From: Marsupella aquatica
Taxonomy: Eukaryota > Plantae > Marchantiophyta
Assembly: GCA_973895155.1 (NCBI GenBank)
Contig: OZ316893.1
Span: 16,522,645 to 16,586,644, forward strand
Length of the DNA: 64,000 nucleotides
Direction: 5' to 3'
Shown here: one piece after another, positions 3,661 to 61,895 of the stretch
Numbering within the stretch: position 1 is the first letter of the stretch
Layout of the letters: each line of letters starts with the position of its first letter
Made by a program: the position numbers and the translations under genes
The notes under the pieces: model-generated
What the model saw: the letters and a program-made list of their open reading frames with translations, nothing else
What the model was told of the DNA's origin: nothing
The model's database searches: none

Positions 3661-5647
3661 GTTCGGGGCTATTGGAAGAACTCTCGGTCATGGAAGAACT
3701 GCTCTTGTCATTGATGCCAACCATAGATGTGGATGTGTTGGGAGTAAAACCATTCTCACGAGGACTGATAATTCTCTCCACACCTCTTTGGCAGAGGCGG
3801 GTAACGATAAACCAAATCCAACCAATATGCACATCCGACGCCAATCCACAATCCACAAAGTCTTGTGATAGAAAATTAATTTAGTAAAATGGTAGCGCCA
3901 GGCGCTTACAAAAGTTCAAAGTGATCCGGGGTGTCCACACCGTAAATGGAAGGATTGCAAAATTCAAAAAGCAACGCACATCTTACGCCTCTCGCTTGAT
4001 ACGACCGGATGGTAAACTAGCGTCAAGCACTTGTCAGATCTTCAGACAAGCGATGACAAAAATGGCTAAGACATCTATCAATTAATCTGTAAGAGATAGA
4101 TCAATTAAGTTGTAGCTATACGCAAGATCCGATTGAACTCATCAACATATTCTGCAAACTACGCGAATAGTGTCTATTGTGAAGGTGACCATACTAGCGC
4201 CGGGCGCTAGTTCGTTCATTCATAGATGAGCCACAATTGTCATTGATTCCAATTGTAGATCGGACTGTATTTGGAACAAAACCATGCTCTCGGGTCCCGA
4301 TGTAAGCCAAAGATGGACTTTGCTCATCATCGCTTCGGGGAAACACGCCAGGAACGGTGGTGTTTTGGAAATCAACACGGCCAAGTTTTTCCTGTTTCCT
4401 CATTTCATCCTCCCGAGTTGGACTATGGGGAGGAGGTGGCCAGTGGCCAGTAAACCTTTCCGCAAACCTCCTTGGCGGAGAATCCCTCAGCCACAGGATC
4501 AGCGTTTCACCAGGACTAATCGCTTCGTCTTGCGAAAGGTTGAAGCGGTTGCGGAAGGCACTTGTTTCCGACCATTCGGGCTGTTCAATCACGGGAACCG
4601 AAATCTCTTCCAAAATGATTGTAGTGTGTCTTTGAAAGTAGGCCGCGGAGATTCTCCTTGGATTATCCATGGCAGGTCAGCAAAAGAGCTTGAACAAAAT
4701 CGAAAGTGGGAAAGCACTAAAAGACGATAATTAATGAAGGTTCACCCAAAAAGTTGATGCAATACTGGGCATTCAAGACTTAATCGCATAAACATTATAG
4801 GGATTAGGGTGTAACCTCGTGGCGACCTTAACCGCCCACTCCATCCGAAAATGGCCGTTGCATCCTCAAACTCCCGTTGTGGTCTAAAACGACACTTTCA
4901 ACATCAAACGGGCATTTTCACCTCACATGATTGTCGCGATAGACCAGACAAAAGATTAACTGGAAAATTCCACTAAAGTCATCCAGAAAGTACGGGAGTA
5001 TCAATGTACCAGCGTCGTGACCGTTATACAATTATAGTAGCGTCGGGTGCTACTATAACAGAAATGTGTATTACGAGTGGACACACCATGGTTGCAACTG
5101 ACATATATAATATCTTTTATTATACAAGATTCCTGCATACATTTGGGTAGCGCCCGGCGCTAGCATAGTTCCACTAAAAAATACACCCAAAATACACAAT
5201 AGAGATCCAAGTTAATCTGAGCACTCCAATTCACTTGATTCGGACCTGTCGGTGGATTTTGCCTCGATGTCTAAAAATTTTCTCTTGGCCATATCATCCA
5301 CAAATCGGTTCCGCATAAATTTTCTATCAGACCCCCTCCTTAATCTCAAACCTTTATTCTCCCAGTGCAGGGTCCGCACACTGTCAACTCGTCTAGCAAC
5401 ATTTTCAGCATAGGAAGGTAAGACAAATGGTTTCTTGGGAGTTTCAATATATCGCCTAGCTATTTTTCGTCTGAGTTGGAAACGCCAACAAAGATTCCAG
5501 TCTGACCTGAGGAGGAGAATATTGGATTTTATGTCAACGGCCACAATATTTGCAAAAAAGGAAATAAAAAATGCGACATCAAAGAAGAAGAAGGGAATCG
5601 ACCGTAATAAAAAATTGGGTTAGCTTATGAGCTTACTCAGTAGTTTC

Positions 5648-8600
5648 TTACTCAGAAGAGTCTCCGCTGTCACTCCCTCCATTAGATTCCAGATCTTCTC
5701 CGGTTAGAGACACTCTGGGAATGTTGGGATCCTCCTCTTCTTCTTCCCCCTCTTCTGCCTCATTCTCATCTTCGGAGTCAAAATTTAATCCTAATTTAAG
5801 TTTATCTCTCTTTCGTTTTGCAAGCATAGGCTTCGGAGGGGCTTTTGACTCAGATACTTTGGGAGTTAGAAGGTCCAGAAATATTTTTGAAGCGGTTTCA
5901 ATGAACTCCTTTCTATTCTCGAGCCCAATTACAAATTGACCACAATTATCATTTGCCACAAATGTACTCCCGGAACCTACAGCCCAATCCAGAACAATAT
6001 CTCCGGGACACGTGATTAGTTCTAGAATAGATTGCATAAACCCTGCATGTAGTCTGGCATTCCCGGAAAAATCAAGCTCGTGAGTTGTATCCACTTTCGC
6101 AAACGAAAGTTCAATCAGATTTGTGATACAGGGATCCTTTGTTCTTGAAAGAGGTTTGAACTTAGGATCCTTTGGAACTTTAACCTTGGATGATAGCCAA
6201 TAAAATATATCCAAACGTAAAGTGAATACCTGAAAAGGCCGGGAACATCAACAAGTAAGGACCTAAGAATTATAATAGTGTCGGGCGCTAGCAAATAATC
6301 AAGAGTATGATTAGTATTGTACCTGGGAAAAGATTAAAATTTCTAATCGAGCACCAGATAATTTGAACAGTGCTTGGCGCTAGCAAAACTTTGAAATTGT
6401 GATCAATAGATTTACCTGTAAATCAGACTTGGCCTTGTACATGGGGAACCCCATGACAACATTATGTGTACACAAACACTGGAATTTCTTAGACTCTTGA
6501 CATGCTGAGATGACCTGTGAAATCTGATCATACTCCCCCGTATGGAGTATCGCAATAATTCCGTCATCCGACAAAAAGGGATCCATTGCCCAGAAAAAAC
6601 ATCGGGCTAGCGTACAATCGGGAACGTTCCATTTAGGGACCTTCCTATCAAGCAAAGTTGGTTTAAGCCCAGTTGGCAAATAAATAAAACCAGCGTCAAC
6701 ACCAAAAGGCCTTTCCTTCCCACCCCTCACCACTCCTTTCAGTCGGCATCCAGATTTGATTAAGTCCTTCCCCCATTTTTTGGCATTTTTAACCCATTCT
6801 GGCTTCTCCTCCTTGTTAAACACACTGTCCACTAATTCATTGACACTGGTCTCAACGAAACAATGACGAGATGCCTTGGATTTAAACTTCCCAACATCAT
6901 GTTGGAGCCCGGTGTCAGAGAATCCCTTTCTGATTGCCTAGCATCGCCAGTCCTCCTGCTTTTCTTCTTCGTACTCGTTGCATTGACTGGTACAACTGAG
7001 TTTCCAGAATTAACTGGTGTAAGTGGATCTGGCAAAGCGCCAGTATTTGCTTCTGAAGCTTCCGGGGTAACCTTCGTATCATCAGTGGCGTCTGCATCCA
7101 ACTTCTTTTGACCTATTCACACAATGCAAAGAATGTGGGATTAGTGTTAGAAAGCAAAAATGGATTAAGGTTGAAGTACGGGAATAGTAGCGCCAGGCGC
7201 TAGCAAAGAACTAAACTGGGTTAGAATGAAAACGTATGTTTCTTCCCGGATCACGTTGATGCACTTGGTAGTGCAGTGTCTACTTTCACTTTTCCTCTTG
7301 GCTTGCGGCTCCTATCTACATGAACAACTATTGTCTCGCAGATTGTTTGTAACTCAGTAGAAGATTTGTCGACGTCGCTCAGGAGCCCTTGCTTCATCTC
7401 AGAAACTATGTTGGGTAGAATCTGCAACTTGGCTAGTTTAAGAAACCAATCCTTCTCCACTTTGTCAAATGGTGAATCCCACTTGTCTCTGTCAAGGTAC
7501 CACGGGCAGTGAATTCTTTCCCACTCGGAAATTTCCTGTGGTGGTAGTTTACCCTCGGCAGGATGCATCGAATACAAGTTAGCAACATGATCTCCCTCCT
7601 TTGCAACAATCCACTTGTGAAATGCGGCTGGATACGCCCAAAGCGCATCCGGGGAATGTATTTCCATCCATATGTAAAAACGATACAAATACCTCTTGGC
7701 CCTCTTCTGATTTTTCTCTGTATATACCTCTTTATCAGGGTATTTTGATGGCCACATGGTGTTGAAGAACTTTGCCTTCACAAGATCCCCATACCTTCTG
7801 AACTCACTTGAAATAATTTCAATCAGACACTCTACTGAGTCACACCCTGACTGGGCAAGCCTATCAACTGGGAGTGTTTCAATGGTTGGGGAAATTGCAG
7901 ATTATAACATCCCAATTGCGATTCTCTCGACGGTATTCCAGGTCTGCCATGTGTGACACCACTGCTTCACTGGATCATCATTCACACTGGCAGGGTGGAA
8001 GAATTGTTTTCTCAACTCTAGAGTATAGTGAGCAACGAGCAAAGTGCACCTCAATTTTGGATCGAGAGCAGAAACTGTTGTGAATAGTCTGGCACGGTCC
8101 ATGGTACAAACAACCAAATCGGGTTTTTTCTCTCGCTTGTTCTTCTTCGTCAATACGTACATCTCTGCACAAGTACCTAGAAAATCTTCAAACTTAGGAC
8201 TAAGAAGAGGAGTGATTTTGGATGTTTTTGTAGACCAATCTTTGGTGGCCTCTTTCAACATGAGTGACTGCCGCTTGGCGACCTCATCAGCCGACCAAGG
8301 ATTGCCTTGACTTGCTGCCAATGCCATGTCCATCTTGAACTGGTTAGTGTAAGCTTTCCTTGGAATGGGACCATTTTTATAATTTTTGGTTCCCCCACGA
8401 AAAGCCCCACGGGGAGGGCAAACAGACAGGCCAAAAGGCCAGACCAAGCGACCAAAACAAAACCAAAAACACCGCGCACAGGCACACGCAACCAGCGCAA
8501 AAAACGCAACCCCCCGCCCACAAAATAGTGGGAGAGGGAACACCAATCACCAACACAAGCCAAAGCGCATCATAAGAGGGCCTCGTTCATTCAGATCAGC

Positions 8601-10719
8601 CCGGAGCCGCGGTCACCATGCTCAAGCAAAAGAGTTGACAGTAGTGCTGCCACTGCCCAGCCATTCCCTACGCAGGTCATCAATCCATGCCTTGGCCCGA
8701 ATCAGGCGGGTGCACTTCCTGCCTGGGGGGCAGCGCCGACTAACAGCAAACGCATTCTCCGCTGCCTCATTCAGCACCAGCCCAAAGTCAAACACACATC
8801 CCCCCCTGGCTGAAACATGTGGGTGTTCCTTCCCATCCAGAGTCGCCATAGAATTTGATGCAAGACAAAGATCCGAGCCACTTGAACATGCTCCTTCCCG
8901 CAGGCCGCCTCTAAAAGAGCCATCAATCCTTGTCCAATTGGAAAACCCAGACTCCTCAACGCAGCCTGACAGAGGCACCAGCAGCGGACAACATGTGTAC
9001 AGTGGAAAAACAGGTGGGGGATTGTTTCAAGCCAGCCATTACAAAGCTTGCAATCTCCATTACTAACCTCCATTCTGAGCGCACGAGCCCCAGTGAACAG
9101 GCCCCCAACAATGATCCTCCAAAAAAAGGTCTTGCCTCTAATTGGAAGATCAGACCCCCAAAGCTTGGCCCAGCACACATTCCAGCGCATCTCAGGCCAG
9201 GACAACGACCAGATCCTATTGAGGCGGTCATGGGAAGAACTCTTAGGCCTTAAGAAGTCATACACTCTACAATTCTTGATTCTGAAGTCCTTCAGCGGCT
9301 CCGATCGATCTGTCCATCTCCATTGCTTGGCATACAAGTAGTACTCAGATTGGTAGTTATTAGCACGCCAAAGGCAATCCAAGAACGAGCGTGCCATCGT
9401 TCGATGCTCCTCAGAGAAGCCATGCATGTTGTGCCAACGTAACGGGAGGTCCTTCCAACATCCATCCTCCGTCGACCATCCATCACCAATAGACCTCAAT
9501 CCCAGCCTGCCACAAATTGCAGCAATCTCTATGATTTAGGGTTAGTGTAAGCTTTGATTTTGTTTTTGCACAAAATATAAACAAGAGCTTCCAGAGGCAT
9601 TTTCCGTGTGTACCAAGAATGTTTGCGAGTCTTTTGTTTGATATACTCAAACTTTGCATAATTGGCGCTGGCAATTATTGACTTATAGTACTCTAGATTG
9701 TGAGAGAGAATCCTTCGGATTCTGTCTGCGTCAAGGATCCACGATGGTTCAACAACGGCCTGCCCTAACCTGCAATAGGTCATGTTTGAAATTAGTAGCG
9801 CCAGGCGCTAGCTTAAACACAAACACTCTCTTTAGTATTTATTTAACAACCATAGATTGCGGAAATCTTTAATTACAAGGTTGGGCCAAATTACTTACTG
9901 GTTGATAGTGTGCATAGCCGCCTCAATCTGACTTTCTGAAGCTTTATCACCCTTGAAAATGGTGCAGAGAACTTTGGGATGATACTTGACATTGTCTGGA
10001 TTTTCCTTTGTGACCATAGTCCACGAGTAAAGTTGGTGATTCCCATCAAACACTGAGAACATTTTGTCTTTCAAGATCCTAAAAGCTGGATTTGCCTCGC
10101 ATTCTATTTCAAATTTCTCATTCTCAGCAACCCAAATAGCATCCCAAGTCTCCCTGATCTCCTCACTGCAGATTTGCTCCACACCATCGGAATTGGTCGG
10201 TTGCACAAAAAACCGCATTCCAATCCTTGGATTGTAGCCACTACTTCGGAAGGAGCCTTTCAATTTCTCAATTGACGCACTCTCCTTCTGAAGCGTCCGG
10301 ACTACCTCCATGTGGATCAACCGACAAAGCGGAATCCTAGGCGGTTCCTTCTCGTTTCCCCATAAATCTTTTCCAAATGACATTATGTGTTGCAAAATGA
10401 CTTCATCCATCCCTAATCCAACCTTGTTGCCCTCTCCCAACGTGTAATCGGTCATGCTATCCGTGTCCATTCGGACCCTTCTTGACTTCTGGAGTGGTAG
10501 TGTTGCGTTCAACGAAGGGATTGCTCTGCTCGACCTTGTAACTCGACGCGAGTAAAATGCCCCAGAGAACAAAGATTGTGTAGACTCGCAATGACCGTGA
10601 TCTCCCTCTGGAACTGTGGTATACCCTCTTGGAGAGCTTGGGGCGCTTGAAGGTTGCATTGTGGAGCATGTCAATACGTGAAGGTCTCTGTACAACACAG
10701 AGCCAGTCTCTACCCTCAC
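5648..10719 (-). pseudogene. Multi-exon gene: ParB/Srx-like N-terminal domain, helical middle region, beta-class N4/N6 DNA-methyltransferase-like domain, acidic tail. Disrupted by a LINE and premature stops
   Basis: ParB-like segment IPLCRLIHMEVVR...IEKLKGSFRSSGY...FSVFDGNHQL. MTase motif-IV-like VDAGFIYLPTG, then FLSDDGIIAILH, then motif-I-like LELITCPGDIVLDWAVGSGSTFVA...VIGLENRKEF. GT-AG introns at about 9770-9898 and 6230-6415, and a third at about 7113-7237 with an apparently mutated donor. Stops at 7902, 7251 and 6832. Confidence 0.72.
8358..9539 (-). mobile_element. 5'-truncated L1-type LINE (ORF2 C-terminus with zf-RVT, plus 3' UTR)
   Basis: 16-bp TSD GGTTAGTGTAAGCTTT at 8342-8357 and 9540-9555. 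ORF 8771-9499 has WAKLW...KTFFWRI...CKLC...ETIPHLFFHC. Excision restores host reading ILCKNKIKAYTNQFKMDMALA, matching copy 2 ILCVDKIKSYSNQFKSDMALA. Confidence 0.92.
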
Positions 10720-11555
10720 GCTCCGAACAAATTACCGTACACAAAGAACTACATTAAACCTTTAAAACTTTTCCATCATAGTGCGGTTGACATCATGTGA
10801 GGAAGAACGACAAGGATTGAAAGAATCTCACTGACCAATCCAAACAAAGATAAGTGGTCGGGACTGTTTGGAATGAGTAGAATTAACGTCTATTTTCAAG
10901 TCATCTGTGGACGCAGCGATCAACGGGAGTGTATTGTTAAACAATTCAACGGAAAACAACACAAAGTAATCAATTCGTTGATACACGTTATCGTTAGATA
11001 TAACCGTTGGGCAAACCAAAGTCATCTCCATCGATACTAGCGCCTGGTGCTAGTATCCAAAAACCAATAAAAATACTATCATCCATGACGATGGCATGGA
11101 GGAGAATATGTCAGCGTCGGGCGCTAGCTATGTATTCCCCGTGTATTTTCCCAAGAAGTGACGATTCCAAAACAAAATGAAACTTTTGTTGACATTTTCA
11201 GTAATTCCATCAAATTCAATACAATGTTTCACTTTGACTTGACAATCCTCTAATGATAGCACTTGGCGCTAGCACGTTCAGTCTGGTTTCTAAGTTGTAA
11301 TCCGAGTACTTCTTTATGGTAGCATCAGGCGCTAATAATTATCTGATCGTGTTTTGTACACGTTACCGGTAAGTAGTGTTGTTGGCAAAACGACAAACTA
11401 CCTTTATGTGTCTACATCTAACGACTAGTACCCATTTTGTCATTTATAAACGATAATCTTTTGATGTTCGTAATGTGTTTACTTAACTTAAGTCGAGTAA
11501 TGTTCTCCTATTTTCTCAGTTCCTTTGTTTGTCAAATTAAGATCATTCTCCCGCA

Positions 11556-14500
11556 ATGTCTAATTCAGTTGTGCTTCTTCGTCCTGATATTGGGGAGATT
11601 GTACGCATCCCTGTAGGTTCATCCGACATGTACAAACAGGTTAGTGAGAACTATCTTTGTGGAAGATTTGACATTGCCATCAATGACATCCATTCCATAA
11701 AACCTGACCATGCATTTGGAGAGGAGACAGATGACGCACTGTTTGATATCGACGATGGATTCAGATTTTGGCACCTCAACGTTGGAAAGAGATACATTAT
11801 CAATCTCCGGCAAAATTCCGTTCTGAATGAAATACATCCGGTTCCATTCATTGACCTTTCTGAGAGTGATGAGGAGGAGGTAGCCATAGATTTGCAGACA
11901 TCGGCCAATCCAGGGTCTTCTATCAAGATAGAAAGTCACTCTCCTTCCAAGCCAATTTTTGGGGGTGTTGTGTACCGTCAAAGCGCGATGGATGCCATTC
12001 TCAAATCAACTGGCCATAGTGAACTAACGCGGTTCATCCAAACAAGTGATTTCAGGCATGAGCAGGTGAATTGTCTACCAAGTAAATACAATGGAAATGT
12101 TGTGTTTGAATTGCCTCCCGCAGAAGGTCTGCTATCAAAAGGTTTGAGGCTCCGTGACATGGATTGGCCTAAAGACTGCTACTTCTGGACACAGATATTT
12201 CCAACTTTTGCGAATGTCCAACCTTAAAAGTTTTGGGAATTTGGTAAAGTGACGTGTACCGGAGCACTCAAATGTCAAAATCAGAAGTGTGATTATCTAT
12301 CGCGGAAGAAAAGAAGAAATTCAAAAGCTTGGGATGGGACACCCAAACTTGTGGGGCCACATACCGTGGGAAAGATTATTGAGGAGGGTGGGGTAGTTTG
12401 TCACTACTGCCAACAATTGCCCTTTTGTACTGAAGCTTGTCCGACAATGCTTTTTTATATGTACCCGCAATTACTTTTCGACGCGGATACATGTAAACAT
12501 ATGTCGCGTCTTGCTGTGCATGTCGGAACTCATGCGCATCCCAGTCGTAAAGTTTTTTCTTGTGGTGCAAAAAATATTGCTCATGAGTTCATAAAGAAGC
12601 AACATGAAGCTACACCATGTGCCACACCATCGGGTATGAAGAATGCCATAACTGGATCTTTAAGGAAGGCTCTTTGTGTGTCCAACAATGACATCGGAGA
12701 ATCAGAGGAAAGAGAAATTTGGGAGTCGTTAATGGTTGTTTTGACCCCTCAAAAGTTTGCATCTCTTTTTTGGAGTGTTCGGCAAGACCAAAAAGGTAAA
12801 GGTGAGTTAGAGTTTCTTGTGGAAATGCATAAATGCATAAAGTTTCCCTTTCTACAACGTTACATGCTCCCGGGTCAAGGCTGTAAGGAGGAGAGACCAC
12901 ATATTTTCAAAATGACAGTAAAAGGGCACAGATCTGGAATTGATTGTTGCGCCAAATGCAACCTGGAGGTCGACTAGAAGGCACGTGGGTTAGTTTTGAT
13001 GTGAATGAGGAGAATGACCAAGGATTGGATAACTTTTAGCACTCGCGTTTATGATCACAATTACCGTGCTCTTTGCACAATCTTCACATGTGAGTTGAAA
13101 GCTGAAGATTCTGAGTCGTTAGAAAAATCTTGGAAATTGATGATTGAGGTTTGCCATGAAAATGGGTTAGACAACGTAGTAATCCATGGATTCATGGCTG
13201 ACAATGCTCAAGCTGGATGGAATGTTGTTTGGAACATGTTTTTTGGTGGACATCCTAACCCGGAAAAGGAGCAATCGGATGCATTTCATTTCTATCAATC
13301 GTTTCATCGTCATTCAATTGAAGGAGTATTGGAAGAAAAATGAGACAAGCACCAGAAGATGTGGGACTCTTTAAGGAACGTGTCAACATTTCTTGGAGCC
13401 TACAGAATTTCCAGGGAAATTGATGTGTGGTGGAGATCAGGGAATTGTGTTCCAGGAAAGCTTCGGATGCTCCAAGGTTGGCTTGCGTGGTGGGTGGTCC
13501 GATGGCGTCAATGGGGAAATTTCATTCATTTGGTGAGTTTCAACATCCGTAAACAAGTAACACTCAAAATCAACATTTTAAAAGAAGTAATCAAACAAAG
13601 TCATACTAGCGCTTGGCGCTATCATTATTTCCAGTGACTTTCGTGTCCTAGGTTCACTCCAATATTTGCCAAGTTTTGATATTAGCGCCCGACGCTAGTT
13701 TCCATTAACCACTTATTTCTCATATTTGTCCACATTCTAGTGTGAATGGTGGTTCAAACATTTATTTATTGAATGCAGTGACTAAGTCATATTTCCTAAA
13801 TTGTGCTCCAAATGTTTGATGCAGAACAAAAGCGTAAAGGAAAGCGCTATGATTCCTAACTGTACTACTTCAGAGGCGGCACATTCCATAATGAAGGCTG
13901 GTCTATTTGAAGCATGTGAGATGGATCAAAACACGGCTCTCTCACAAGTTGCGGCATATATGGCGTATAAGAGAGGTCTTAATCGAGGAACCGGACCTAC
14001 AAATTGGGACTTGGCATTCCGTTCGGCAAACCAGGCAGGTTCTTCAAAACTTTTCCAAGATGCTTCCAATATGCTTCTTTCCGGTGCGGCTGAATTCGAC
14101 CTGGAAAGGAGTAGCCCTCTCAATGGGGATGTTACCACAAAGTCTATGAAGAGGAAAGGTCAAGCCTCTCGGGACATCTCGGCACAAGACTCCCATCGGC
14201 ATGACACTATTCTTGTAACATCACCAAATACTCAAGGCATGAAAAGGAAAAACTTAAACAAGACTGAATTCTCCCCGGTTGCATCGGGTCCTGTTCAGCA
14301 TGACATTGGCGTTGTGGACCTGTCGGAAAGTGAAATTGAAGAAGGCAGTCATTGGAGTACTCCGCCCTGGAGGAGGTCAACAAGGTTGTCTGCAACCCCG
14401 CAAAGTGCACCTCCCAACCTCCAAAAGGTTGTCCATGACTCAATTGTGTTGGAGACAGATGTGCGACCAGGGGCGTGGCACCTACGAAGAGTGACGAAAC

Positions 14501-15321
14501 ATGGTGCAGGGCCTCAGTGTAATGGATCTCTTGGTGGAAAATTGGATCGAGATGACTGTCGCAATCGTCTGAAAAAGGTTGGTTACCCATCAACGGATGG
14601 TGTAGTTGGCATTGTTGTCAAAGGATATCGCGTGTTCAGGGGAGAACCACATCCTAAGATGATTTGGTTTTGTCCCAACAATGCATGCTATAAGAGCCGG
14701 CCCCGTCGTAATGTGGTGAATCTTCCCCCATTTCCTCATAGCCTGCCTATTTTGAAAGGAAATAATCTTTCTGAAGCTGAGGTCCAATTCCTGACTCAGC
14801 AAGGGATTGCGATCAATCCAGAGGCCGGACGTCAGGCTGCTCCATCTCCATTTGACTTGCGAATCAATGTGAACCTTTTCCCGGAGAAAATCAATCTCCT
14901 TGAGCCAAATATCCACCTTTGGAGTAGGAATGGTAAAAATACAATCCCACGTTCAAATGTTTTGCAAGGGCACAACAAAAGAATTGAATCCGCAAACAAG
15001 GAGTCGATGACCCTCATTCAACAATTTGATGTTTTTGTCGGGAACTCTTGGGGCAAACAATTTCAGATCCAAACCCAAGAGAGACTTTGCACGACAAACA
15101 CTTATTGGGTAGAAATTTGCATTTTCCCATGTTGTTCTTGTGAGGACTTCTATCGTCGCCATTCTCATGGCAAACCCTTCATGCCTTGCAAGCATCTCTA
15201 TTGGGTGTATACCAACATCCTCAAACTAGATGTGGTGGATTCAACTTTGGCTAGTCAGCCAATTCTGACTGTAGGTGAGGTGAGACTCATTCTAGCTAGG
15301 CAGAATTCTCTGGACTTATAG
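11556..15321 (+). pseudogene. Mutator-like transposase (GCM-like Cys/His DNA-binding region, DDE-type core, C-terminal SWIM zinc finger), two exons, with stops and a frameshift
   Basis: CTGALKCQNQKC...CHYC...C...HVGTHAHP. Putative catalytic residues at SFDV, GFMADNAQA, AFHF and TTSEAAH. SWIM CSCEDF...PCKHLYWVY. Intron 13533-13824 (GTGAGT...GCAG). Stops at 12225 and 13341, frameshift near 12945. Confidence 0.82.
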
Positions 15322-30324: not shown

Positions 30325-30326
30325 AT

Positions 30327-44178: not shown

Positions 44179-44653
44179 TGTTGAGCATAGACGACGATCG
44201 CAACGGCAAGCCCATGAACCATCCAACGCACAATAGTCGACACAAGAGATACGTGGTTCACCTCCTTGAGGCTACGTCCATGGGAACACACAAGAGAGCT
44301 TTACTGAACTCTAAGCCCGTCGGCTATACCGAGTCTCCACAGTGTAAGCTCTCCCTATCTCTCAAGTGGCTCCATAACAATGAGCCTTGGTTCTACCTCT
44401 CCAAGCACACATGCCTCTTATGATATAGTGTGCAACTTAGTTGTACCTAACCACATAGTTGTACCTAACCACATAGTTGTACCTAATCACGTAGTTGTAC
44501 CTAACCACATAGTTGTACCTAATCACGTAGTTGTACCTAACCACATAGTTGTACCTAATCACGTAGTTGTACCTAACCACGTAGTTGTACCAACCCACGT
44601 TGTTGTACCAACCACGTCATACCTAACCTAGACGTAAGAGTAAATACCCAACA
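44179..44653 (-). repeat. 3' LTR of copia element 2 (10 units of the 18-bp repeat)
   Basis: TGTTGAGC...CCCAACA, followed by the PPT complement. Confidence 0.95.
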
Positions 44654-44844
44654 ATCTTCCCCTTGACTCTGGTCTAGGGGAGAGTAATACTGCCAATGTA
44701 TATGATCCCTCAGCGGGAAGTTCTGGACAGAAACCAAACCGGTTTCCCTCTCTAACTAGAGCAAACCAGAACTAAGCCGTAGCCTAATACATAGGAATGA
44801 GGAAGAGCATATATCAGTAATTACAATGAATGTTTAAGAAAACT

Positions 44845-50300: not shown

Positions 50301-50775
50301 TGTTGAGCATAGACGACGATCGCAACGGCAAGCCCATGAACCATCCAACGCACAATAGTCGACACAAGAGATACGTGGTTCACCTCCTTGAGGCTACGTC
50401 CATGGGAACACACAAGAGAGCTTTACTGAACTCTAAGCCCGTCGGCTATACCGAGTCTCCACAGTGTAAGTTCTCCCTATCTCTCAAGTGGCTCCATAAC
50501 AATGAGCCTTGGTTCTACCTCTCCAAGCACACATGCCTCTTATGATATAGTGTGCAACTTAGTTGTACCTAACCACATAGTTGTACCTAACCACATAGTT
50601 GTACCTAATCACGTAGTTGTACCTAACCACATAGTTGTACCTAATCACGTAGTTGTACCTAACCACATAGTTGTACCTAATCACGTAGTTGTACCTAACC
50701 ACGTAGTTGTACCAACCCACGTTGTTGTACCAACCATGTCATACCTAACCTAGACGTAAGAGTAAATACCCAACA
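50301..50775 (-). repeat. 5' LTR of copia element 2
   Basis: Direct repeat of 44179-44653 with about 2 substitutions seen. PBS complement GCTCTGATACCA at 50287-50298. Confidence 0.95.
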
Positions 50776-53700
50776 GGTTGGAGGGCTTTGTCAGGTTGTC
50801 CTGGAGGATGGTAGACATACCCGATGAGGATCTATTGGACTTTGTGGGATGCTGGGAGGCTTCTTCCAACACGACACTACTGTATGGAAAGGTGTTCGAA
50901 CTAACACCTACGCTTATCGAAGCCGTCTTCGCTTTACCAACAGGAAAGAAGACTAAGGTGGAGCAGAGGAAGACGTTGTCGGATGACCAGTTCAGGTCAT
51001 TTCCAGGGCCTTCCACTAAGAATGGGTTTTTTAGGAATCAATGTACCAACCCGCATATAGGGCAGCTGATTGATTTCCTGAGAGTCACGTTGCATTGTAC
51101 CTTGCCGAGAGCAGAAATCGGCAAAGCCCAGGTATTTTTGGTGGAGAATATCGATGGAAGCCGAGACTACAACGGCTATCTCTTAATGCAATTGAAGAAG
51201 ATATTAAATGAAGAGAAGTAGAGCATTGGGGAGGGAACGGTATCCAGACTAGGGTACCATCTGCAATTACTTTGCCGATATGCAAGAAGCCAGTCTTTTG
51301 CACTGGTGTTGCCTATACAGGAGCGGATGCCGATCACTGCACCACTTGAGGAGGTGGAGGAGGACGAGGAGCCTCTAAGCAAACGCCCGAGCAAACGATG
51401 CCACGGGAGGAGGTCGGCAACACCGGCAACACAAGAACGGGAGCATTCCCCTATCAAGGAGCCAGAGGTAGTAACATATGATGTAGTGAGAAATCCGTTG
51501 CGCCGGCCTACTCGTAATAATCCATATGCAGGCATCCAATTGGTCGAAAGGAAGATGACTGCCAAAGAGATCAAGAAATATGACGAGCGAATGGATTCGG
51601 AGACAGATGAGGAGGTAAGCCAAAGCCAGGAGAGGCCGGGATTAAGAGCTTCTAATAGAGCCCAAGTGGAGGGACCTGTGGAGGAAAGTCAACCAGCAGC
51701 AGCCCAACAATATTCAAAGGAAGAGATTGGGGGCTTTGGAGGAGAGGCCAGTATGCTAGGTAGTCAGGTTAATGTGGATGATTACGACGATGACGATGTC
51801 GATCACGGGGAGAGGCCGGTACCAGGAGTTAGAACGATGGGAAGGTTTTGTAGAAGACTTCCCGCAGTCTTCTATGGCAAGCCGGAGGACCAGAAAACAC
51901 CAGAATCTCCTCCACCAGATGTGGCGCCATTGGAATTTGACAAGATGAAGGAAGCTGAAGCCGGGCTACAAGAGAGGATTAAGGAGTGGGGGGCCCGGAA
52001 TGCAGAACAGGAATGCCAGCTACCAGGAGGAGAGTGGCCGGAAAAAATAAGACGGCTTAGTGAGAGGCAGGCCGAACCTCTCACTAACTTCGTCAATTAT
52101 GGGCAGAGGCTTGGGAGAGACGACCTCAATGGCAGATGCCAGTATCACCTGGGAGGTCAAACTACGCAAGAAATCGGGCTAAGGAGTATGGAGACATGTG
52201 TGGACTCTTAGCCTTAGAAATCTTCGGTAACGAGTTGGAATCCGGGCCATTTCTTAGAAAAGAAGTGGCTGATCAAACAAGACTGGAGGAGGCAATGACA
52301 TTGGAGCGGTTAAAGAAAGAGGAGGTAATCGCTCGGCTTCGCTCCATGGAAGCCAAAGTTGCTAAGACAAAGTCTGGTCAACCAACTCAACAGGATCTCT
52401 TGGCTAAGCAGCAGGAATTGGAGGTGGCGAACAACCAATTGGAAACTACCAATTGGATAACCAGCAGATCAAGGAAAAATTGACGAAGGTAGAGCTAGAG
52501 TTAGCCGATTCAAAAGCAGAAGTACAGGGTCTAAATTGCCAAGTCGAGAGGCTCAGAAAGACGGCTAAGGATCAGGCCACCTAGAGCGAGAAGGCCTTGA
52601 CAGAAGCCCAAAGGAAGTATGACAAGTTACTCGACCGGTTGGAGGCCATGCGTGAGAAGCATGATGACGCCATGTGCACAGCGGCCAATGATCACCTAAA
52701 CCGGGTTCAACAGATACGCAAGGAGCTTCAGGAGGAGCTAACCAGGACAAAGCAGGCATGGACGGACGAGGTCACAAAACTGGAAGGCATCAACGACTCC
52801 TTGAAAGCAGTCGTAGATAAGCAAGAGTTGGAGATCGTGCAGATCTTAAATGAGGAGCTGAAGATGGCCAGGTCCGAGATACAACGGCTTAACAATGAAG
52901 TTGAAGACGTATCTCAGGAATTGGAGGAGGCCAGGGATAAGATGCTCGGGTTGCAAAAGCGTGCCGACAATCAAACGGAGAAATTGAAGAAGTATGCCGA
53001 AGCGGGATATGGGTCACCAACTAAAAGGCTTCCCATCAGTAGTATGGTAGGCGGAAATACAGTGAAGCCGAAGCCGAAGCCGAGCTCACTATTGTCAAGC
53101 GTGACTGGGGGCAAAGCCATGCAGTTGGTAGCAGATTTGGCAGAGACGTTCATAGGGCCAGGCGATAATAAAGTTAAGCCCCTTAAAGCCACTCCGGAGG
53201 AAGTCGAGAGCATGGCCGCTCACATTTGTGGTATTGTGGCTCTGAAGGCAGCTGTGGTAGAGGTAAGTACTGCGGATCAACTTGGAGCTGCGGTAATAGG
53301 TTCAGACGATGGTACTGCTTCTATGGACGCCCAGAACGTGAAGCCATGGGTTATCGAGACCGAGCGCATCGGGGAGCAGGCTTGGATTGAGGAAGTTAAG
53401 GCAAAAGCTCTCCAAGCCGTTTCCCAGGAGGATGTTGATGCAGCAGCCGATGCCGGGGTCGACAAACCAGAACCCGAAATCGAGGAAGCCGAAGGGGTTA
53501 AGCCGGAGCCGATGGCAGGAGAAGGTGCAGAGTCGGAAGATTCAAACTTACCCTGGTCATCTGTCAATTAAGGAGGGCCAGTCATCGGTTGGAAGGAGGA
53601 CGTGGCGGCAGGAGAAGGGCTTGGGCCAGAAGGGCGCGGCCGTTGTAGGATGGGACAGGGCAAGTAGCACCCTGTTGGCTTAGGTAGTATTAGATGCTTG

Positions 53701-56661
53701 GTTCACACAGGGTTCCGGGCTAGTCAAGTTTTTTAGGTGATAGTTTTTTAGTAGGATTATCGCGGTGGAAGGCTGTGAGTTGTGGTTAGGATTTCCGCCT
53801 TTTCCCCTGAACGCGCTGCAAGGATAAAAACCTGGGCAGCGTGGCTCGGGGGGGCTTTTTCTTAGTCAAGGCTTTAGTGTAAATCTGTATTGTTGTGAGC
53901 ACAGGAAGCTCTCGGCTAAATCTAGACCGCAGGATATCAGTAAACCACCAGTTCCCTTGGATTTTTGAGCAATTGTTTGAATTGAGTTGGCCTCGTTGCA
54001 TAGTTTGCAGATTCTTGCCATCCAAGAAGTTGAGTGTTATGATATTTGTTGCTTGATCGATTTAAGTCAAATAGGGTGAACTGTTGAGCAAAATACAATC
54101 GCATTGTCTTGATTGGAGACTGCCCAATCAAACTCTGAGAGAAAAGTGAGGATTGAGAGTGTTTAGTCGGTGAAGTGTGGGTTGAGTCAGTCTGAAAAAG
54201 ACCTTCAGCCGGCTTAAGAAATTAAGCCGTAGGGGTACATTCCGGGGGCGGAATACAAATATACCTGAAGAAGTTAAAGAGGAATTAGGTGTCTCAGTTG
54301 TGCACAATTCACAAGCCCAGTGAAAGAATCGGTCCAGTAAGTGTGGATCAAAGGAGAGGCTCGCGTTTCCAAACCAAATAGCTGCCAAAGGGCAAGAGGA
54401 CGGACATAAACGAGTGGTTTATGATCGACTGAGGGTAGTTCTTGGGGTTAGAGGTCTTGGAAAATGCGCCACACATTCCAAGTTGCATGTCCTTTTTGTT
54501 TCACCGATTGAGTTACAACATCCCCATTCAATGGAACGCTTCTTTCCAAATCAAACTCAGCAGCATTTGACAGGAGAAGATTGGTGGCTTCCTCAAAGAG
54601 ACACGGTGATCCCGCCAGGTCCGCCGATCTGAAGGCAAGCTCAAAAATAGTTGGGCCAGTTCCTCTGTTCAATCCCCTTTGTATGCAGTACAAGCAGCAA
54701 TTTGAGCAACAACTCTATTTTGGTCCGTTTTGCATCCTTCAAAGAGACCAACCTTCTTTTTCTGTTGCCATGCTTTCATTCCAGCATGCCTAGATTCCGA
54801 TCCAATACAGTTTGGAATCATACCAGCTTCTTCGGCACTCTTGCTCTAAAACATTGCACGCAAGTGTTTAGTACATATAAGAAATTGCACTCACAAGTGG
54901 AAATACAATGGATATAATAGCACCAGGCGCTAGTATACCATACTTGATGACTATGTTTCCATGCAAAATACAGTTGAACACAAAATAAACGTAGTCCTTA
55001 TATCACTCATAGTCCGAATGGATTATTAGTGCTTGGCGCTACTCTTGCGAGTAAGGAACTATGCACCAAGACAACCACCCTTGGAGCATCCGAAGTTTGC
55101 CTGAGTGACAATTGCCAGACCTCCATCAGTCATCGATTTCCCTCAAGATTTGATATGCTTTCAAGAAATTTGATGCATTCTGAAGACGATCCCACACCTC
55201 CTTGTGCTCTCCGTGCTTTCCATCTTTCACACCTTCTTGGGAATGACGATGAAAAGATAGGAAAAAATGAAAGACATCTGATCTTTCTTGCTCTGGGTCA
55301 GGGAGGCCATCAAAGAACACGTTTTGAATAGCATTCCAGCCAGTCTGAGCATTGTCCGCCATGAATCCCCGAATTGTAACATCTTATAAGCCATTTTCAT
55401 TGGCAACCTCAAGCATCAAATGCCAGGCTCTCTCCAGAGATTTTGCATCTTTGGCCTTTAGCTCACAAGTGAATATGGTGCAAAAATGCCCGGTAATGAT
55501 GATCATATACATGGGCACTAAAAGTAAGCCAATCTGCCATGCTTCGATGCATCATGCATGTTAAAACTTACCCATGAGCCCTCTAACGTCTCGCCACGTT
55601 TCATTCTTTGGAGCAGGTCCAGACCACACCCGTCACCTTTTACGGTCATTTTGAAGATATGAGCATTCTCGTCCCGGTAGCCTTGACCAGGGAGTAAGAA
55701 CCTTTGAAGAAAAGGCAATTGGATACACTCTTGCATCTTGACAAGAAATTCCAGTTCCCCTTTCCCCTTCTGATCTTGACGGAAACTCCTTAACACGGAT
55801 GCAAACTTCTGAGGAGATGCAACGACCATCAGGGACTCCCAAATTTCCTTCTCTTCTTCAAGAGAGATTTCTTCAACAAAGGCCTTGAAAAATGTATTTG
55901 TCGATGTCTCAGTCGCAGAGTGTTTTATCCCTGCTGGGGTTGCCATGGGATTTGCACTGAATCCCGTCTCCAAATGCGACTTTGCTACCTTTTCTGCCTC
56001 CCTCGACCACACCCATCTACTGGGATGATTGTGAAATCCCATATGAATAGCAAGTCGCGACATGTGGGCCAAAGACTTTACATCAACTTTTGCAGATGGA
56101 TACATGTAGAACATTAGAGCAGGGCATGCCTCAACGCACATTGGAGGTTTAGAGCAATGGTGACAAACCACTCCACCTTCGGAGATCAATTCCCCAACTT
56201 GGAACAGGTCCAAAAGTTTTGGGGTTCTTGCCCACACCTCATTATTTCTTAACTTGTTGTCTTTCCACCATGGACAAGCATTATTGCGACATTGCAGCGA
56301 TCCCGTACACTAAACTTTCCTGAAATCCCACATTTTCTTCAAGAGAACATTTGAAGATGTTTTCACAATCCGAGTCCAGTAATAACAATCCTTACCACAA
56401 TCCATATCTTTCAAACGTTCCCCTTTCGCGTTCACACAGTCTACCGGGGGTAACTCAAAAACCACATTCCCATTGTAAGATGTGGGAAGACTAGGAACTA
56501 CGTGATGAACAAAATCACTCCCCCTTATAAACCGAGATAATTCACTATGCCCTTTGGATTTTAGGATTGTATCCATTGCACTCTGCCGGTACACAGTCAA
56601 AGGCACGATCTTTTCTCGATCAGCATTATACTCCTTTTCAACCTCGGATAGGTAAATTGGA

Positions 56662-57028
56662 GGTGTTTACAAAAGACAGCAAACAGGAAACAGGATTTAA
56701 TAACAGAAACTGGTAACAGGAAAAAAAACTGGTAACTGGAAAATGGGTGGAATTTTTTTTTGAATTAAAAGTTGTTTTTTTCCGGTCGACCAGTTTTTTT
56801 TGCTAGCGCCCGGCGCTGCTAATAGTAGCGCCCAAAGCTAGCCAAAAATGTTGCATTGTTAATTTTTTTTGGAAATAACATGTTTTAGGAGACATTTTTA
56901 AATTGTCATTTTTCCTGGTAACAGTGACTTTTTCCTGGTAACAGCATATTAAAAACAGTGACTTTTTCCTAGTAACAGTGACTTTTTCCTGGTAACAGTG
57001 ATTGTTTCCTGTCTCCGTCGCTATACCC
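56662..57028. mobile_element. 367-bp MITE-like non-autonomous relative of the Mutator-like family
   Basis: 11-bp TSD GGTAAATTGGA (56651-56661, 57029-57039). G...C termini (GGTGTTTAC...GCTATACCC). GGTAACAG/TTCCTG subterminal repeats. Two family palindromes (56804, 56826). Excision restores the frame GKIPIYLSEVEKEYNADREKIVPLTVYRQSAM. Confidence 0.88.
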
Positions 57029-59711
57029 GGTAAATTGGAATCTTCCCTACAAAAGTAGTTGTCACTTGCTTATCATCTCCAGAACTTTCCAAGAGTTTGA
57101 TGACATCGAGTTTACCCGCCATGGGAGCACGATCATTGGAGGTCCCAGAATCTCTCAAAGCAAAGACCTCGTATTCCTTCTGGGCAGCCATATTCCAATA
57201 TCTTTGACCATGAACAACATCGTAGAAAACTAGAGTCTCCCCTGAACAAACGGACACCAATGAGATTGCTAAAATAGACTCCTTGGCGACATCAAATCTC
57301 ACTCCCAAATATTCCTCTAAAACTCGCTTTGATTTAGATGATTTGGGGATGGGAATTGTGATTACATCCCGAGTGTCCTTCCTCGTGACAACGATATTTT
57401 GAGCTATGGCTTCAAAACATGATAATGGACTTGCCCCGCGCGAAATGAAATATGTTTATCATGAGATTTGAGTACGATAAGTAAACGTTCCATTATCACT
57501 ATAGAGTCGTTATAGTTTTGGACGCACTGCATCAATGACGTTTTGTCGTCTTACCAACGGCAGGATTTGGGCTAGAAGTTACTAGCGCCTGGTGCTACCT
57601 CTGGGTACAATATGATAACACTCTTGGGGTGAGGAGTGCAAAGGTCAATAATAATAGCGCCTGGCGCTACCTATTTCAATCCAAATGAAAACAAAATGCA
57701 CTTACTAGAAAAGTACGATAATGGTATTAACACAGTAGAGCCGACGCGGTACTGTACGAGTCATTAAGTTGGCATGCTTGAAGATCTCCCCTGTATCTCT
57801 GCGAATTCAAACCGTCCGGGTACCAAAGTGTGATAAAGGAAGCATCTCCGAAAGTGATCTAAAAAAACTCTTCAAACAGGAAGCCCGGGACTATCTCTGC
57901 ATTCTCCTTATATCTTGTCGTTCTCCTCCTATGTCCTCATTCTTGAGTCCTTCTTCAATGACATCAACTTCTCGCTCCCAAGTCTCACCTTAGGACTCTC
58001 ATATTCCAGGCAAAGACGGCGTCAAGATCTGGTTGTGCATTGTCGGCGTTGGGTCAGCAATGGTTCTTGCTGAGCTTCTGGGGGCATTCTTGTTGAGAGG
58101 TCCTTGCTTTCAGTCCTACTGTATCTTGATCCGATTCAGTGGCACCTCCACGAGGGAAGGCTAAGGAGGAGGCAGTTGTCCCGAGCAACACCGATTGGGA
58201 GACCCCCACATCGAATAGCTTGCCGCCGCTGCCGACTACACGGAGGATCACGTTTCCAATCTTGGGGAAGGGCAAGACAATCTTGAAGACTAAGATAGCC
58301 CCACCTGCGGGCCGTGGAGAAGGTTCCAGTTGGCCAAATCCAAGCTGCACGCTTCTATTCCCCCTGGGGATATCGCCCCTACTATAGTTGGTCTTTCAAG
58401 AGTTGCCACTCTTTGCACTGATCTCTTTGATGTAGAATCATCCACGGAGAGTGATCCTTCTTCGAGCAGAGACTCATCATCGAGCAGGCAAGGATTTGTG
58501 TGGTATGGATCGAGCGACTCCAACGATGACTCCGATGCATACAAGCCAAGTTGGTGGGAAGACTGATTTCCCATTGTCATAGCGTATTGTTCGAGTGCTG
58601 GACCTACTTGGAGGATGTATCAAAGTTGATGGTAGATGTTTCCATATGTATTTTCCGATAGGAAACGTTTACCGGTAGTTCAGTGCATGTTGGATTACTA
58701 GAGTTTTGAAACATTTTGTATCTGAATGGCAGATCCGTTTGTTTTGATATCGGTGTCAATGCGTTTGAATTGAGAAGACCAAGAGTTAATTTCTGCTTCT
58801 AATCTCATGGTTGTATTGTAGTTATGAATGTGAACTGGATCAATTTTTTAAAATTGTTGGAAACACTTGTTGTTTGTTGATCTTTTTGATAGCGCTTGGC
58901 GCTATTATGAGAAACGAAGAGTTGCTAACAGTTTTGTGACCTGTCCTATCTTTAAATTGATTTTGATAGTGCTTGGCGCTATTAATCCAAAGACCCAGAA
59001 TTCAAACCCTTTGGGTGTTAATTTTACCTTTATTTGAACAAATGCTTTTCCATTCATTTACAAATTAATAGCGCCAGGCGCTATTATAAGTTATTGGACA
59101 ATTCCATCCATGAATTGGTTAATGCTGATATGTTTATTGTGAGTGGAGTCCAATTTGATGATTTATTTCAATACTAGCGCCGAGCGCTACTAAAGTTTAC
59201 TGGTCGACACCTTCGCAAAATTTGAAAATTCAGATATAGGAACTCAATACTACCGTTGATCGCTACTAAAATTATGTATTTTCAAATTCAGTTGAGTGTA
59301 TGTTTTATAATAGCGCTTGGCGCTAGCGTGAATTATCGACACTGTTCTGGTTCCAACGGTCACTTTCTAACAGTAATATTATAGTAGATTGAGGTTCACG
59401 GAACCCTTTTTCCTTTTGTCTCGGATGAAAGGCCAATCAAAGAATGCCATCTGTCCTTGGGACCATTGTAATCGATTGGCTGGGTCCATTGTATCGGTGT
59501 CTTAATACAAGGTTGGGATCACTCTTTGTAGATAATTTAGTCCATTTAAGTGCACAAACCTTGGACTGTACAAGTTTGTCAAGTGTGTATGTGGGTCCTT
59601 TATTGCTCCCGTACATTTTGAGACGTGATTGTCACAAGAACTGCACGGTGTGTACGACACTGTCGGATGATCGAGTCCCTCTCCTCAACATCTTTTGGCT
59701 AGGTGATACGA

Positions 59712-61895
59712 GAATGGGGGAAGCTGATGGTGGTCATTTTGAGTCCTCTTAGTCTTTGTTCTCTGGTTCAGTATACACCCGTCGCGTCACCCGATCGACT
59801 ATGTCCCTGTCAACTTCCAAAGCTGAATCTACACAGCCCTTCTCGAGGTCAATAAGAGGAAGAATGGACCCTAAGGAGGTCTCCATGGGTGAAGTCAATG
59901 ACGTAGGCTTATCCAAGGACGAGGTAATATCAAAGCATGCATTGTCATTCGGGAAGGATTTCCGAGGATTCGATAAGGAGCCACCTCAAATTCCTCTTTG
60001 TAGATTGCTCCCCATGGAGGTTGTTTGAACATTATAGAAAGAGAGCGTGTCGATCGATAAGTTGAAAGAATCATTCCGGGTCACAGGGTACAACTCGCGC
60101 ATTGGGATGCCTTTCTACCTTCAGCTTGCAAATGCCAATGGGGTTCCTCAAAGCTGCACTAGCAAGATTCGGGACTCTTGGGATCCAATCTGGGTCGCAG
60201 AGAATGAGAAGTTTAAGGAAGAGTGTGATGCGGATCCAGCGTTCCACATTCTAAAAGATAAAATGTTTTGTGTGTTTGGCAAAAATCATCGATTGTACTC
60301 CTGGTCAATTGTCACTAGGGAGAATCCGGACAACTTGAAGTATCATCCTCGTGTGATTTGCATCATTTTCAATGGTGACAGAGGTTCTCTGGTTGAGCTC
60401 GAGGCGGACATGCACACCGTGAACCAATAAGTTATATTCGTTAACTATTTTTACCGTTCTCATTCATTTTGGACCAAACATGTTGTACGATAGTGTTCAT
60501 TCCCCAATCTTTGCTAGTGCCCGGCGCTGCTAATTCCTTTTCATTTCATCCAGGCTTGGACAAGCAGTCGTCGAGCCTTCCTGGATTCTTGACGCGGACA
60601 GAATTTCCCAAATTCTGTCGCGTGATCTTGATCACTACAAACCACTGATTGACAGCGCAAACATGGTAAAGTTTGAGGCAATCCAAAAGAAGACAAGAAA
60701 GGGGTCTTGGTTCACACACAAAATGCCACAGGATGCTCTCATCTATATTTTGTGTGTGGACAAAATCAAGTCTTACTCAAATCAATTTAAGTCGGATATG
60801 GCTTTAGCCAAAGCTCAAGGGGCGCCTTGGTCAGAAGAGGAGACCACAAAGAGGCATGAGGCAATGATGAAGGAGGCAACCAAAGATTGGTCGATCAAAG
60901 TGACCAAGATCACCCCTTTACTTCATCCGGATTTTGGAGATTATTTGGGAACCTGTGCTGAGATGTATCCTGTAACTGAGAAGAACAAACGGGAGAAGAA
61001 GCCAGAGATAGTCGTATGCACCATGGATCAAGCCCGGTTGTTTACTGTTGTGTCATACCTGGATCCAAAATTGAGGTGCACCCTTCTAGTAGCCCACTGC
61101 ACTCCTGAGATTTGGAAACAATTTTTCCATCCTGCAAGTGTCAACGACAAGCCTGTGAAGCAGTGGTGCCATACATGGGATACTTGGAATTCTGTTGAGG
61201 GAATTGCAATTGGAATGCTTCACACTTCCTTCAAACAGATTTATGACCGGATGCCGGTTGGCCGTCTCACAAAGTCTGGATGTGAGTCAATGGATGCCAT
61301 GCTGAAGATCATTCTTGATGAATTCAAGAATTTTGGGGATCTTGTAAAGGCAAAATTCTTTAACAACTTGTGGCCTTCCAAGTATGCGGACAAGGAAGAT
61401 TACACAGAGTGGAACCGCAAAAGAGCCAAACAATATCTATACCGGTTTTACATGTGGATGGAGCTTAGATCTCCTGACACTCTATGGGCATAACCTGCTG
61501 CATTTCAGAAATGGGTGTCTATTCAAGAGGGAGACCCTCTTGCCAACCTCTATTTGATGTACCCAGCGGAGGGAAAGTTTCCACCACGTTCATTGTCGGA
61601 GTGGGAGAGACTTCACTGTCCGTGGTACCTCAACACAGACAAATGGGATTTTCCGTTCGACAAAGCTGAGAAGGATGCGTTCATGAAGTTGCAGAAGTCC
61701 CAGATCCCTGCAAACTATGTGTTTGCAATGAAGCAAGGTCTACAATCTGATGTTGATGAATCTGCATCTGAGTTACAGAAGAATTGTGAGACTCTTGTCA
61801 TGCACGTTGACCAAAACTATAAGCCAAGAGCAAAGGCAAAGAATGAGTCAGCTGCACCAAGTGAATCCACAAGGTCCTTCAAGAAAAGTGAGTAG
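59712..61895 (+). pseudogene. ParB/Srx-like gene of copy 2 (N-terminal and middle regions; the MTase-like exons are lost by truncation)
   Basis: KEPPQIPLCRLLPMEVV...IDKLKESFRVTGYNSRIG...MFCVFGKNHRLYSW. Middle region closely matches copy 1 (EATKDWS, VVCTMD, QFFHPASVND, KAKFFN, YPAEGK). Intron ~60427-60553 with a mutated donor. Stops at 60026 and 61491. Confidence 0.8.

Follow-up and report, generated by a model that had tools for sequence, protein, structure and literature searches.

A family-specific palindrome in the non-coding DNA of a liverwort transposon as a candidate binding site of its ParB-like accessory protein

Two defunct copies of one transposon

We analysed a 64,000-nucleotide stretch of the genome of the liverwort Marsupella aquatica (GenBank assembly GCA_973895155.1, contig OZ316893.1, positions 16,522,645 to 16,586,644 of the forward strand), hereafter the window, which holds two inverted copies, A and B, of one DNA transposon. 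Each copy carries a transposase gene and a divergent accessory gene encoding a protein with ParB-like and methyltransferase-like domains. A palindromic word with the core TAGCGCC-N-GGCGCTA recurs 29 times in the element, almost always outside exons, and is a candidate binding site of the accessory protein. The window is repeat-rich plant DNA with copia, CACTA, long interspersed nuclear element (LINE) and gypsy-type pieces, and both copies are defunct through stops, frameshifts and insertions (Table 1).

Copies A and B match in their exons only (59-68% nucleotide identity), the exon limits having been inferred from splice signals and homology. Just one end of each copy lies inside the window: A ends at about 15997 and B begins at 17094. 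The first 30 nt of these two ends and of both ends of a miniature non-autonomous relative, which sits inside a copy B transposase exon, resemble one another more than 2,000 random window stretches do (p 0 to 0.007).

A palindrome confined to the element

Allowing up to two mismatches to the palindrome, we found 28 matches in the window, against a mean of 0.02 and a maximum of 1 in 100 dinucleotide shuffles. Up to three mismatches gave 30 matches. One of these, at 53153, was dropped, as it scores 11.5 bits, within the simulated maxima, and lies inside an unrelated retroelement open reading frame (ORF). The remaining 29 form our working set, and a weight matrix, built from these same sites and hence circular for them, scores them at 20.7-33.9 bits; the next best position reaches 15.0 bits, and the maxima of 20 simulated windows range from 3.5 to 14.9 bits. 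Two lower-scoring sites, at 4018 (15.0 bits) and 59251 (11.7 bits), are probably decayed copies of the palindrome. The original prediction, which was made from the letters of this DNA, had counted about 29 copies, and all nine coordinates that it named are among the clear sites.

The 15-bp core that had been described was confirmed, and the word proved to be longer: the symmetrised consensus is WTRN-TAGCGCC-N-GGCGCTA-NYAW, 21-23 nt. Core positions 2 and 3 are kept in 58/58 half-sites, as is a purine two bases outside the core, which is preceded by T in 45 of the 58. The centre base and the bases adjoining the core are free.

All 29 sites fall inside the element spans and none in the remaining 45,095 bases of the window, the spans being our own delimitation, with an uncertain left edge of copy A placed so as to take in 3893. 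Exons make up 70% of the spans, yet 28 of the 29 sites lie outside them (binomial 6e-14). The exception, at 4195, overlaps the stop codon of a small ORF. The sites are absent from the exons of the two main genes and from unrelated transposons, as had been claimed. Copies A and B hold 27 of the 29, the other two (56804 and 56826) belonging to the miniature element.

The compartments are shared between the copies. Accessory intron 1 has one site in each copy and the transposase intron two in each; the intergenic region between the divergent genes has four in A and seven in B, and the region 3' of the transposase two in A and one in B. Accessory introns 2, 3 and 4 of copy A contain one, two and no sites, respectively. 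The word is therefore present in six of the seven examinable introns rather than, as first supposed, in every one, the intron before the fifth accessory exon (5651-5507) having none. For site 55027, the exon end in copy B is unclear, and similarity to copy A ends 23 nt earlier. Each copy has a site 310-360 nt inside its end. Thirteen short spacings between sites showed no helical phasing (p 0.41), and a cluster of spacings at 72-77 nt was insignificant (p 0.12).

Table 1. Features of the window (positions within the 64,000 nt)
Feature	Position	Strand	Remarks
Accessory gene, copy A (pseudogene)	5212..10658	-	exons about 10658-9899, 9769-7239, 7112-6416, 6229-5652, 5506-5212
Accessory gene, copy B (pseudogene)	59717..61888	+	ParB-like and middle exons; methyltransferase part missing beyond about 61900
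Transposase gene, copy A (pseudogene)	11556..15321	+	exons 11556-13533 and 13825-15321
Transposase gene, copy B (pseudogene)	42110..57440	-	pieces 57440-57040, 56650-55064, 54845-54478, 43260-42110; retroelements fill 43261-54477
16 palindrome sites, copy A (first part)	3893, 4195, 5038, 5148, 6276, 6368, 7188, 9796	.	
16 palindrome sites, copy A (second part)	11038, 11112, 11257, 11320, 13607, 13683, 15445, 15688	.	span of the 16 sites 3893..15702
11 palindrome sites, copy B (first part)	41978, 54918, 55027, 57583, 57655	.	span of the 11 sites 41978..60529
11 palindrome sites, copy B (second part)	58890, 58967, 59069, 59175, 59311, 60515	.	
Right end of copy A with short subterminal repeats	15920..15997	-	first 30 nt resemble the copy B end and both miniature-element ends
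Terminus of copy B	17094..17151	+	in public contigs, the adjoining high-copy repeat stops at 17093
Miniature non-autonomous relative, 367 nt	56662..57028	.	10-11-nt target duplication; 20-nt-period subterminal repeats; palindrome sites 56804 and 56826
CACTA element with nested copia	17152..41672	+	3-nt target duplication; inserted 58 nt inside the copy B end; palindrome-free
LINE 3' fragment (zf-RVT) in accessory exon 2	8358..9539	-	16-nt target duplication; palindrome-free
Small ORF, kind unknown	4194..4676	-	3' part repeated at 3688-3769; palindrome site overlaps stop codon

The only shared non-coding sequence, and how it decays

Copies A and B have 35 non-coding 11-mers in common (null 6.0), a number that drops to 8 (null 6.0) once the word is masked, and alignments of four orthologous non-coding pairs score z 0.2-1.6. 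The palindrome is thus the sole non-coding sequence common to A and B above chance, and the earlier observation of a motif retained amid unalignable DNA was borne out. Beyond 3-4 nt, the sequences flanking the sites are unrelated, which does not fit tandem amplification of the motif.

As originally noted, deviations from the palindrome are mainly C>T or G>A (31 of 38 mismatches). The mismatch rate is 9% per site position and alike in the two copies. By context, C>T changes affect 15/58 CHG, 15/128 CG and 1/104 CHH cytosines of the word, and position 6 is altered in 6/12 CCG contexts against 1/46 others. These mismatches look like plant 5-methylcytosine (5mC)-type decay from perfect sites. We also noticed that the inner cytosine has become T in 7/17 CTG strands against 1/17 CAG strands (p about 0.07). 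This asymmetry may reflect a variant that is tolerated or the protection of a single strand.

Contigs of four public runs, one of which may be the source of the window DNA itself, were compared over 11020-11350. At site 11257, both deviations read as consensus at all depth in three runs (3, 2 and 3 contigs). A perfect site at 11038 was found in one loose contig end. Four of the seven deviations in the region had no contig row, which decides nothing. Furthermore, a 930-nt contig matches the window only around sites 11038 and 11320, whose distance is conserved, with unlike letters between them (205 against 207 in the window).

The genes of the element and their products

The accessory protein consists of a ParB-like N-terminal domain, a helical middle, an amino-methyltransferase-like domain of beta order and an acidic tail. 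Its gene in copy A contains stops and a frameshift, and exon 2 (9769-7239) is split by the LINE piece. The fifth exon matches the end of a relative from Riccia (pairwise E 0.001). This last exon also encodes, at 5212-5320, two terminal acidic F-x-D-x-x-A motifs, with a similar motif kept in the Riccia relatives; a short partner-binding motif is possible.

Searches returned 102 relatives at E <= 0.001. Seven Riccia sorocarpa and two Calypogeia fissa proteins were among the 20 that we looked up, and all 23 hits of a full-length search were Riccia proteins. In a tree of 22 middle-domain rows, both window copies group with one Calypogeia and seven other rows (99/99). In one Riccia gene model, P0052, the accessory middle domain is joined to a piece resembling the transposase N-terminus (39% over 87 residues, E 1.7e-12); the two genes are therefore probably neighbours in Riccia too. 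Single exons used as queries in word-based searches had no match among longer proteins. When we looked for related loci together with their flanks, the search patterns matched 17 metagenome and 40 viral stretches, none of which was confirmed.

The ParB-like assignment draws on two observations. A GxxR-type motif occurs in 25 of the 134 stored proteins over which motifs were counted, 24 of them with R; the corresponding residues are DGNHQ in copy A and GKNHR in copy B. The Atlas neighbours of the protein include DUF3723 (0.95, 31% of members) and ParB_N (0.92, 11% of members). The C-terminal domain matches Pfam N6_N4_Mtase (E 4.8e-08), and in the alignment the catalytic motif precedes the S-adenosylmethionine (AdoMet) motif, which defines the beta order. 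Structure prediction for a Riccia relative gave a helical middle domain with a predicted local distance difference test score (pLDDT) above 89 over most of residues 311-710, and Foldseek rows for this relative included M1.HpyAVI, CcrM and MboIIA at weak E values of 0.37-1.0. Modelled from its single sequence, the ParB-like exon gave an unusable structure (pLDDT 35.9), and a homodimer prediction in which the alignment went unused scored 0.00 and was uninformative.

The transposase is, we presume, Mutator-like, as judged by a GCM-like zinc finger, an acidic core and a SWIM-like end. Mutator-like target duplications measure 9-11 nt, and that of the miniature relative measures 10-11 nt. The transposase had no Pfam or NCBIfam hit; weak Pfam matches (ToxA_barrel, E 0.003, and a ferredoxin-like one) were below the cut-off and dropped, and the best Atlas score, 0.80, is a lead at most. 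The presumed Mutator-like class rests on these motifs and on the layout in PMC1702500, where Mutator-type transposases carry WRKY-GCM1 DNA-binding domains.

What reads the palindrome?

The nature of the word can be judged from the way it varies. It is very improbable that the word functions as a hairpin in RNA or single-stranded form, such as one that helps these short introns to be spliced. The word is self-complementary and present in most examinable introns, but its core has undergone 36 single changes and one compensatory pair, and the conserved W-T-R flanks add no pairing (8, 14, 17 and 11 of 29 at successive positions, against 8.2, 14.7, 17.2 and 12.6 with shuffled partners). Moreover, the region between the divergent genes contains 11 sites, others are located past the 3' ends, and the window has no Rfam match. 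The idea that each site is an independent tiny insertion or excision footprint biased to the element, which the original prediction had raised against itself, has the least credit of all. Although two sites lie within a miniature element having its own target duplication, direct repeats flanking the 29 sites average 1.93 nt, the same as in shuffled pairings (1.93), and A and B have their sites in the same compartments (one each in accessory intron 1, two each in the transposase intron). Because there is no target duplication and no hairpin covariation, because the word is the only shared non-coding sequence and because its mismatches are of 5mC type, we are confident that a protein dimer reads the palindrome. 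The word would be a double-stranded site for a symmetric dimer, selected while the family was active.

This protein is probably encoded by the element. A host transcription or chromatin factor exploited by the transposon is an improbable reader. Transposons do amplify host factor sites, and GTGGGACCCAC, which is common to the subterminal regions of A and B (15770-15830 and 41835-41900, with one change in A), resembles the site of plant TCP factors, so that the element may make use of host sites. Against such a factor, 45 kb of other window DNA contain no site, and plant factor sites are generally shorter than a 14-base core flanked by conserved outer positions. Resemblances to E2F-type and CTCF-type host sites were set aside; the T-rich flank of the former is missing here, and CTCF is not known to have a plant counterpart.

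Within the element, the competing candidate is the transposase, whose N-terminal GCM-like zinc finger might bind the sites for autoregulation or assembly of the transposition complex, with the ParB-like gene as unrelated cargo. We consider this unlikely, though a good deal less so than a host reader. In its favour are the DNA-binding domains of Mutator-type transposases (PMC1702500), the site 310-360 nt inside the end in both A and B, and the two sites retained by a miniature element that needs cis signals only. We nevertheless favour the accessory protein because the transposase has candidate sites of its own, in termini and subterminal repeats that have drifted apart between A and B, whereas the palindrome has remained unchanged; because the majority of sites are intronic and kilobases from the ends, in compartments that VANC21 occupies in its own element; and because ParB-like genes and inverted repeats are reported together on a different transposase superfamily. 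On balance, we regard the palindrome as a candidate binding site of the element's own ParB-like accessory protein rather than of the transposase, with the chances for and against evenly divided.

Several observations weigh against this assignment. The two sites in the miniature element are equally predicted if the transposase is the reader, and protein identity between A and B does not discriminate (ParB core 63%, middle 67%, GCM-like 57%, acidic core 66%). The ParB domain had no hit in Pfam, NCBIfam or PDB-sequence profile searches, and its ParB_N row in the Atlas has just 136 shared features. Fold searches with a whole 1,191-residue relative were dominated by the methyltransferase domain; neither ParB nor helix-turn-helix proteins were among the rows listed, a result that excludes nothing. 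The canonical catalytic motif [DNS]PP[YFW] occurs in 0/134 stored proteins; at the position of motif IV, 19 pattern-matched relatives have D[MLI]P[ST]G and copy A has YLPT. CpG depletion, taken as a trace of past hypomethylation, gave a mixed test: values are 0.53-0.61 in the element's exons and 0.77-0.83 in its non-coding DNA, against 0.29-0.36 in CACTA, and the element is not less depleted than copia (0.50), LINE (0.57) or gypsy-like (0.70) DNA. The ParB-methyltransferase description of the gene thus stands as far as the GxxR motif, the Atlas hits and the Pfam N6_N4_Mtase match carry it, and falls short in the missing Pfam ParB hit and the non-canonical catalytic motif. The suggestion that CCNGG or GCGC within the word is the modification target is unsupported: the family lacks that canonical motif, and among the cytosines of the word those in CHG context decay fastest.

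If the accessory protein is the reader, a dimer might load at the family-specific palindromes in introns and gaps, and the ParB-like domain might close it on DNA or spread it from the site. The methyltransferase-like domain could then write a base mark or, given its odd catalytic motif, just bind or flip bases. Acting in this way on the surrounding element DNA, the protein would probably counter host silencing, in a VANDAL-like form of self-protection. We put forward this purpose, anti-silencing by a clamping or spreading ParB-like domain and a marking or base-binding partner, only tentatively. The fuller picture of a land-plant transposon with its own ParB/parS-type system, in which a nucleotide-gated clamp would spread over the element and shield or re-mark it by means of a repurposed bacterial methyltransferase fold, while miniature elements would keep the site and parasitise the protection, is more speculative still.

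Relation to known systems

In the layout of its sites, the element resembles Arabidopsis VANDAL21, whose introns, intergenic DNA and terminal regions contain a 9-nt motif bound by VANC21 (PMC5735166). VANDAL21 is of Mutator type, as our element presumably is, and both have an accessory gene and a short motif in intronic, intergenic and terminal non-coding DNA that is shared with non-autonomous relatives. The original prediction of a family-specific, protein-binding-type palindrome in introns, intergenic and subterminal DNA is in line with what we observed, and VANC21 sites are distributed likewise. However, VANC motifs are 8-9 nt long, non-palindromic and spread by tandem repeats, whereas the palindrome here is not tandem-amplified, and our Pfam scans revealed no VANC homology.

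Parallels to the protein come from algae. In the brown alga Ectocarpus, Sola1-1_Ec32 encodes an accessory protein with a ParB-like and an N4C/N6A methyltransferase domain, for which self-binding was proposed (PMC12477816). Like the protein described here, it has about 1,100-1,200 residues, with a ParB-like followed by an amino-methyltransferase-like domain, and its gene lies on the strand opposite the transposase. The likeness is one of domains and gene layout; transposase superfamily and host differ, and the excerpted description of Sola1-1_Ec32 names no binding sites. In the red alga Bostrychia, Plavaka elements carry a ParB-like gene, PAG3, beside inverted-repeat arrays, and a self-marking hypothesis has been stated (10.1101/2025.02.11.637652). 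These PAG3/PAG2 elements likewise combine a ParB-like accessory gene and inverted repeats in one element. In contrast to the tandem arrays beside PAG3, single sites are dispersed here through introns and gaps with unrelated flanks, and the ParB-like domain is fused to a methyltransferase-like domain instead of a 2-oxoglutarate (2OG) oxygenase. Given a ParB call based on GxxR and the Atlas, our element, too, places a ParB-like and a DNA-modifying domain together on a DNA transposon, as do those that define the algal accessory proteins.

Among prokaryotic ParB-family proteins, the central helix-turn-helix of canonical ParB, not the N-terminal fold, reads parS, and the sequence does not reveal which nucleotide is preferred (PMC12704722). 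A central site-reading domain is missing from some ParB-like phage proteins that partner DNA-modifying enzymes (PMC13229309), and VirB, an anti-silencer of the ParB family, uses a palindrome as its loading site (PMC10653881). The element shares with ParB/parS, KorB/OB and VirB a GxxR-type N-terminal motif and palindromic sites, and those clamps are a precedent for long-range gene control, anti-silencing among it. Its 29 sites lie in and around the ParB-like gene, as palindromic sites do in ParB/parS systems, and the KorB site also has TAGC and GCTA arms, at shorter spacing (PMC11790492). Unlike partition systems, the element has no parA partner: no ATPase gene was found among 39 scanned ORFs, and the gene neighbour is a transposase. 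Nor is the word a prokaryotic site. The 23-nt pattern had five hits in 596 billion bases of prokaryote genomes, five in metagenomes and one in viral sequence (on the same contig as one metagenome hit), once per locus throughout, and the first six metagenome or viral loci with the pattern encode no relative of the element's proteins. We thus rejected a borrowed bacterial parS, and the term parS-like used in the original prediction is apt as a functional analogy only.

The methyltransferase-like domain invites comparison with MpDN4MT1 of Marchantia and N4CMT of bdelloids, host genes with an SPPY motif and demonstrated N4-methylcytosine (4mC) activity (10.1101/2021.02.12.428880, PMC8885841). The domain is likewise of the bacterial N6_N4 type, with the catalytic motif ahead of the AdoMet motif, but it carries D[LMI]P[TS] and is transposon-borne. 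The element is therefore outside partition systems, by its lack of parA, and outside canonical amino-methyltransferases, by its motif. Its layout is like that of VANDAL/VANC, and its proposed chemistry would be that of KorB or VirB.

Accessory genes of ParB-like and methyltransferase type, and the idea of self-marking, have already been described for brown and red algae. Neither a land-plant case nor single palindromes dispersed over introns turned up in our literature search, whose coverage ended short of Iyer et al. 2011, which the Ectocarpus paper cites for green algae, and of the Bostrychia supplements; similar sites may be present in those supplements (Fig. 13A, Table 6). The same role was proposed for the algal genes without a defined site, whereas an exact 21-23-nt consensus is available here. 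Together with full-length Riccia sorocarpa gene models, this consensus makes a long-open question accessible to direct binding and methylation experiments. The questions concerned are how large transposons escape silencing and whether ParB-type clamps act on eukaryotic chromatin. If the proposal is true, the accessory protein would be a sequence-targeted, spreading epigenome modifier.

Other features of the window

The small ORF at 4194..4676 probably belongs to copy A. Its 3' repeat (3769-3688) runs into an ORF with a gag knuckle and a protease (3880-2219), and its depth in one public run tracks copy A, not the gag region; it may be a third element gene cut by a retroelement. Between the genes of copy B, the minus strand of 57960-58640 contains a site-free, serine- and acid-rich open stretch that has no Pfam hit and is absent from A.

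The interval between the ends of A and B (15998-17093) is a repeat whose depth is very high and greatly exceeds that of the adjoining DNA in each of the four public runs. The CACTA element split an imperfect hairpin of the copy B subterminal DNA at its centre (17105-17151 and 41676-41735), and it contains an ORF with two BRCT domains (E 5.5e-14) at 31872-32789, just upstream of its transposase. Finally, a second palindrome-like word, of the GACGCTT-N4-AAGCGTC type, occurs in nine copies at 716-1263, in a repeated region of another element that resembles a long terminal repeat.

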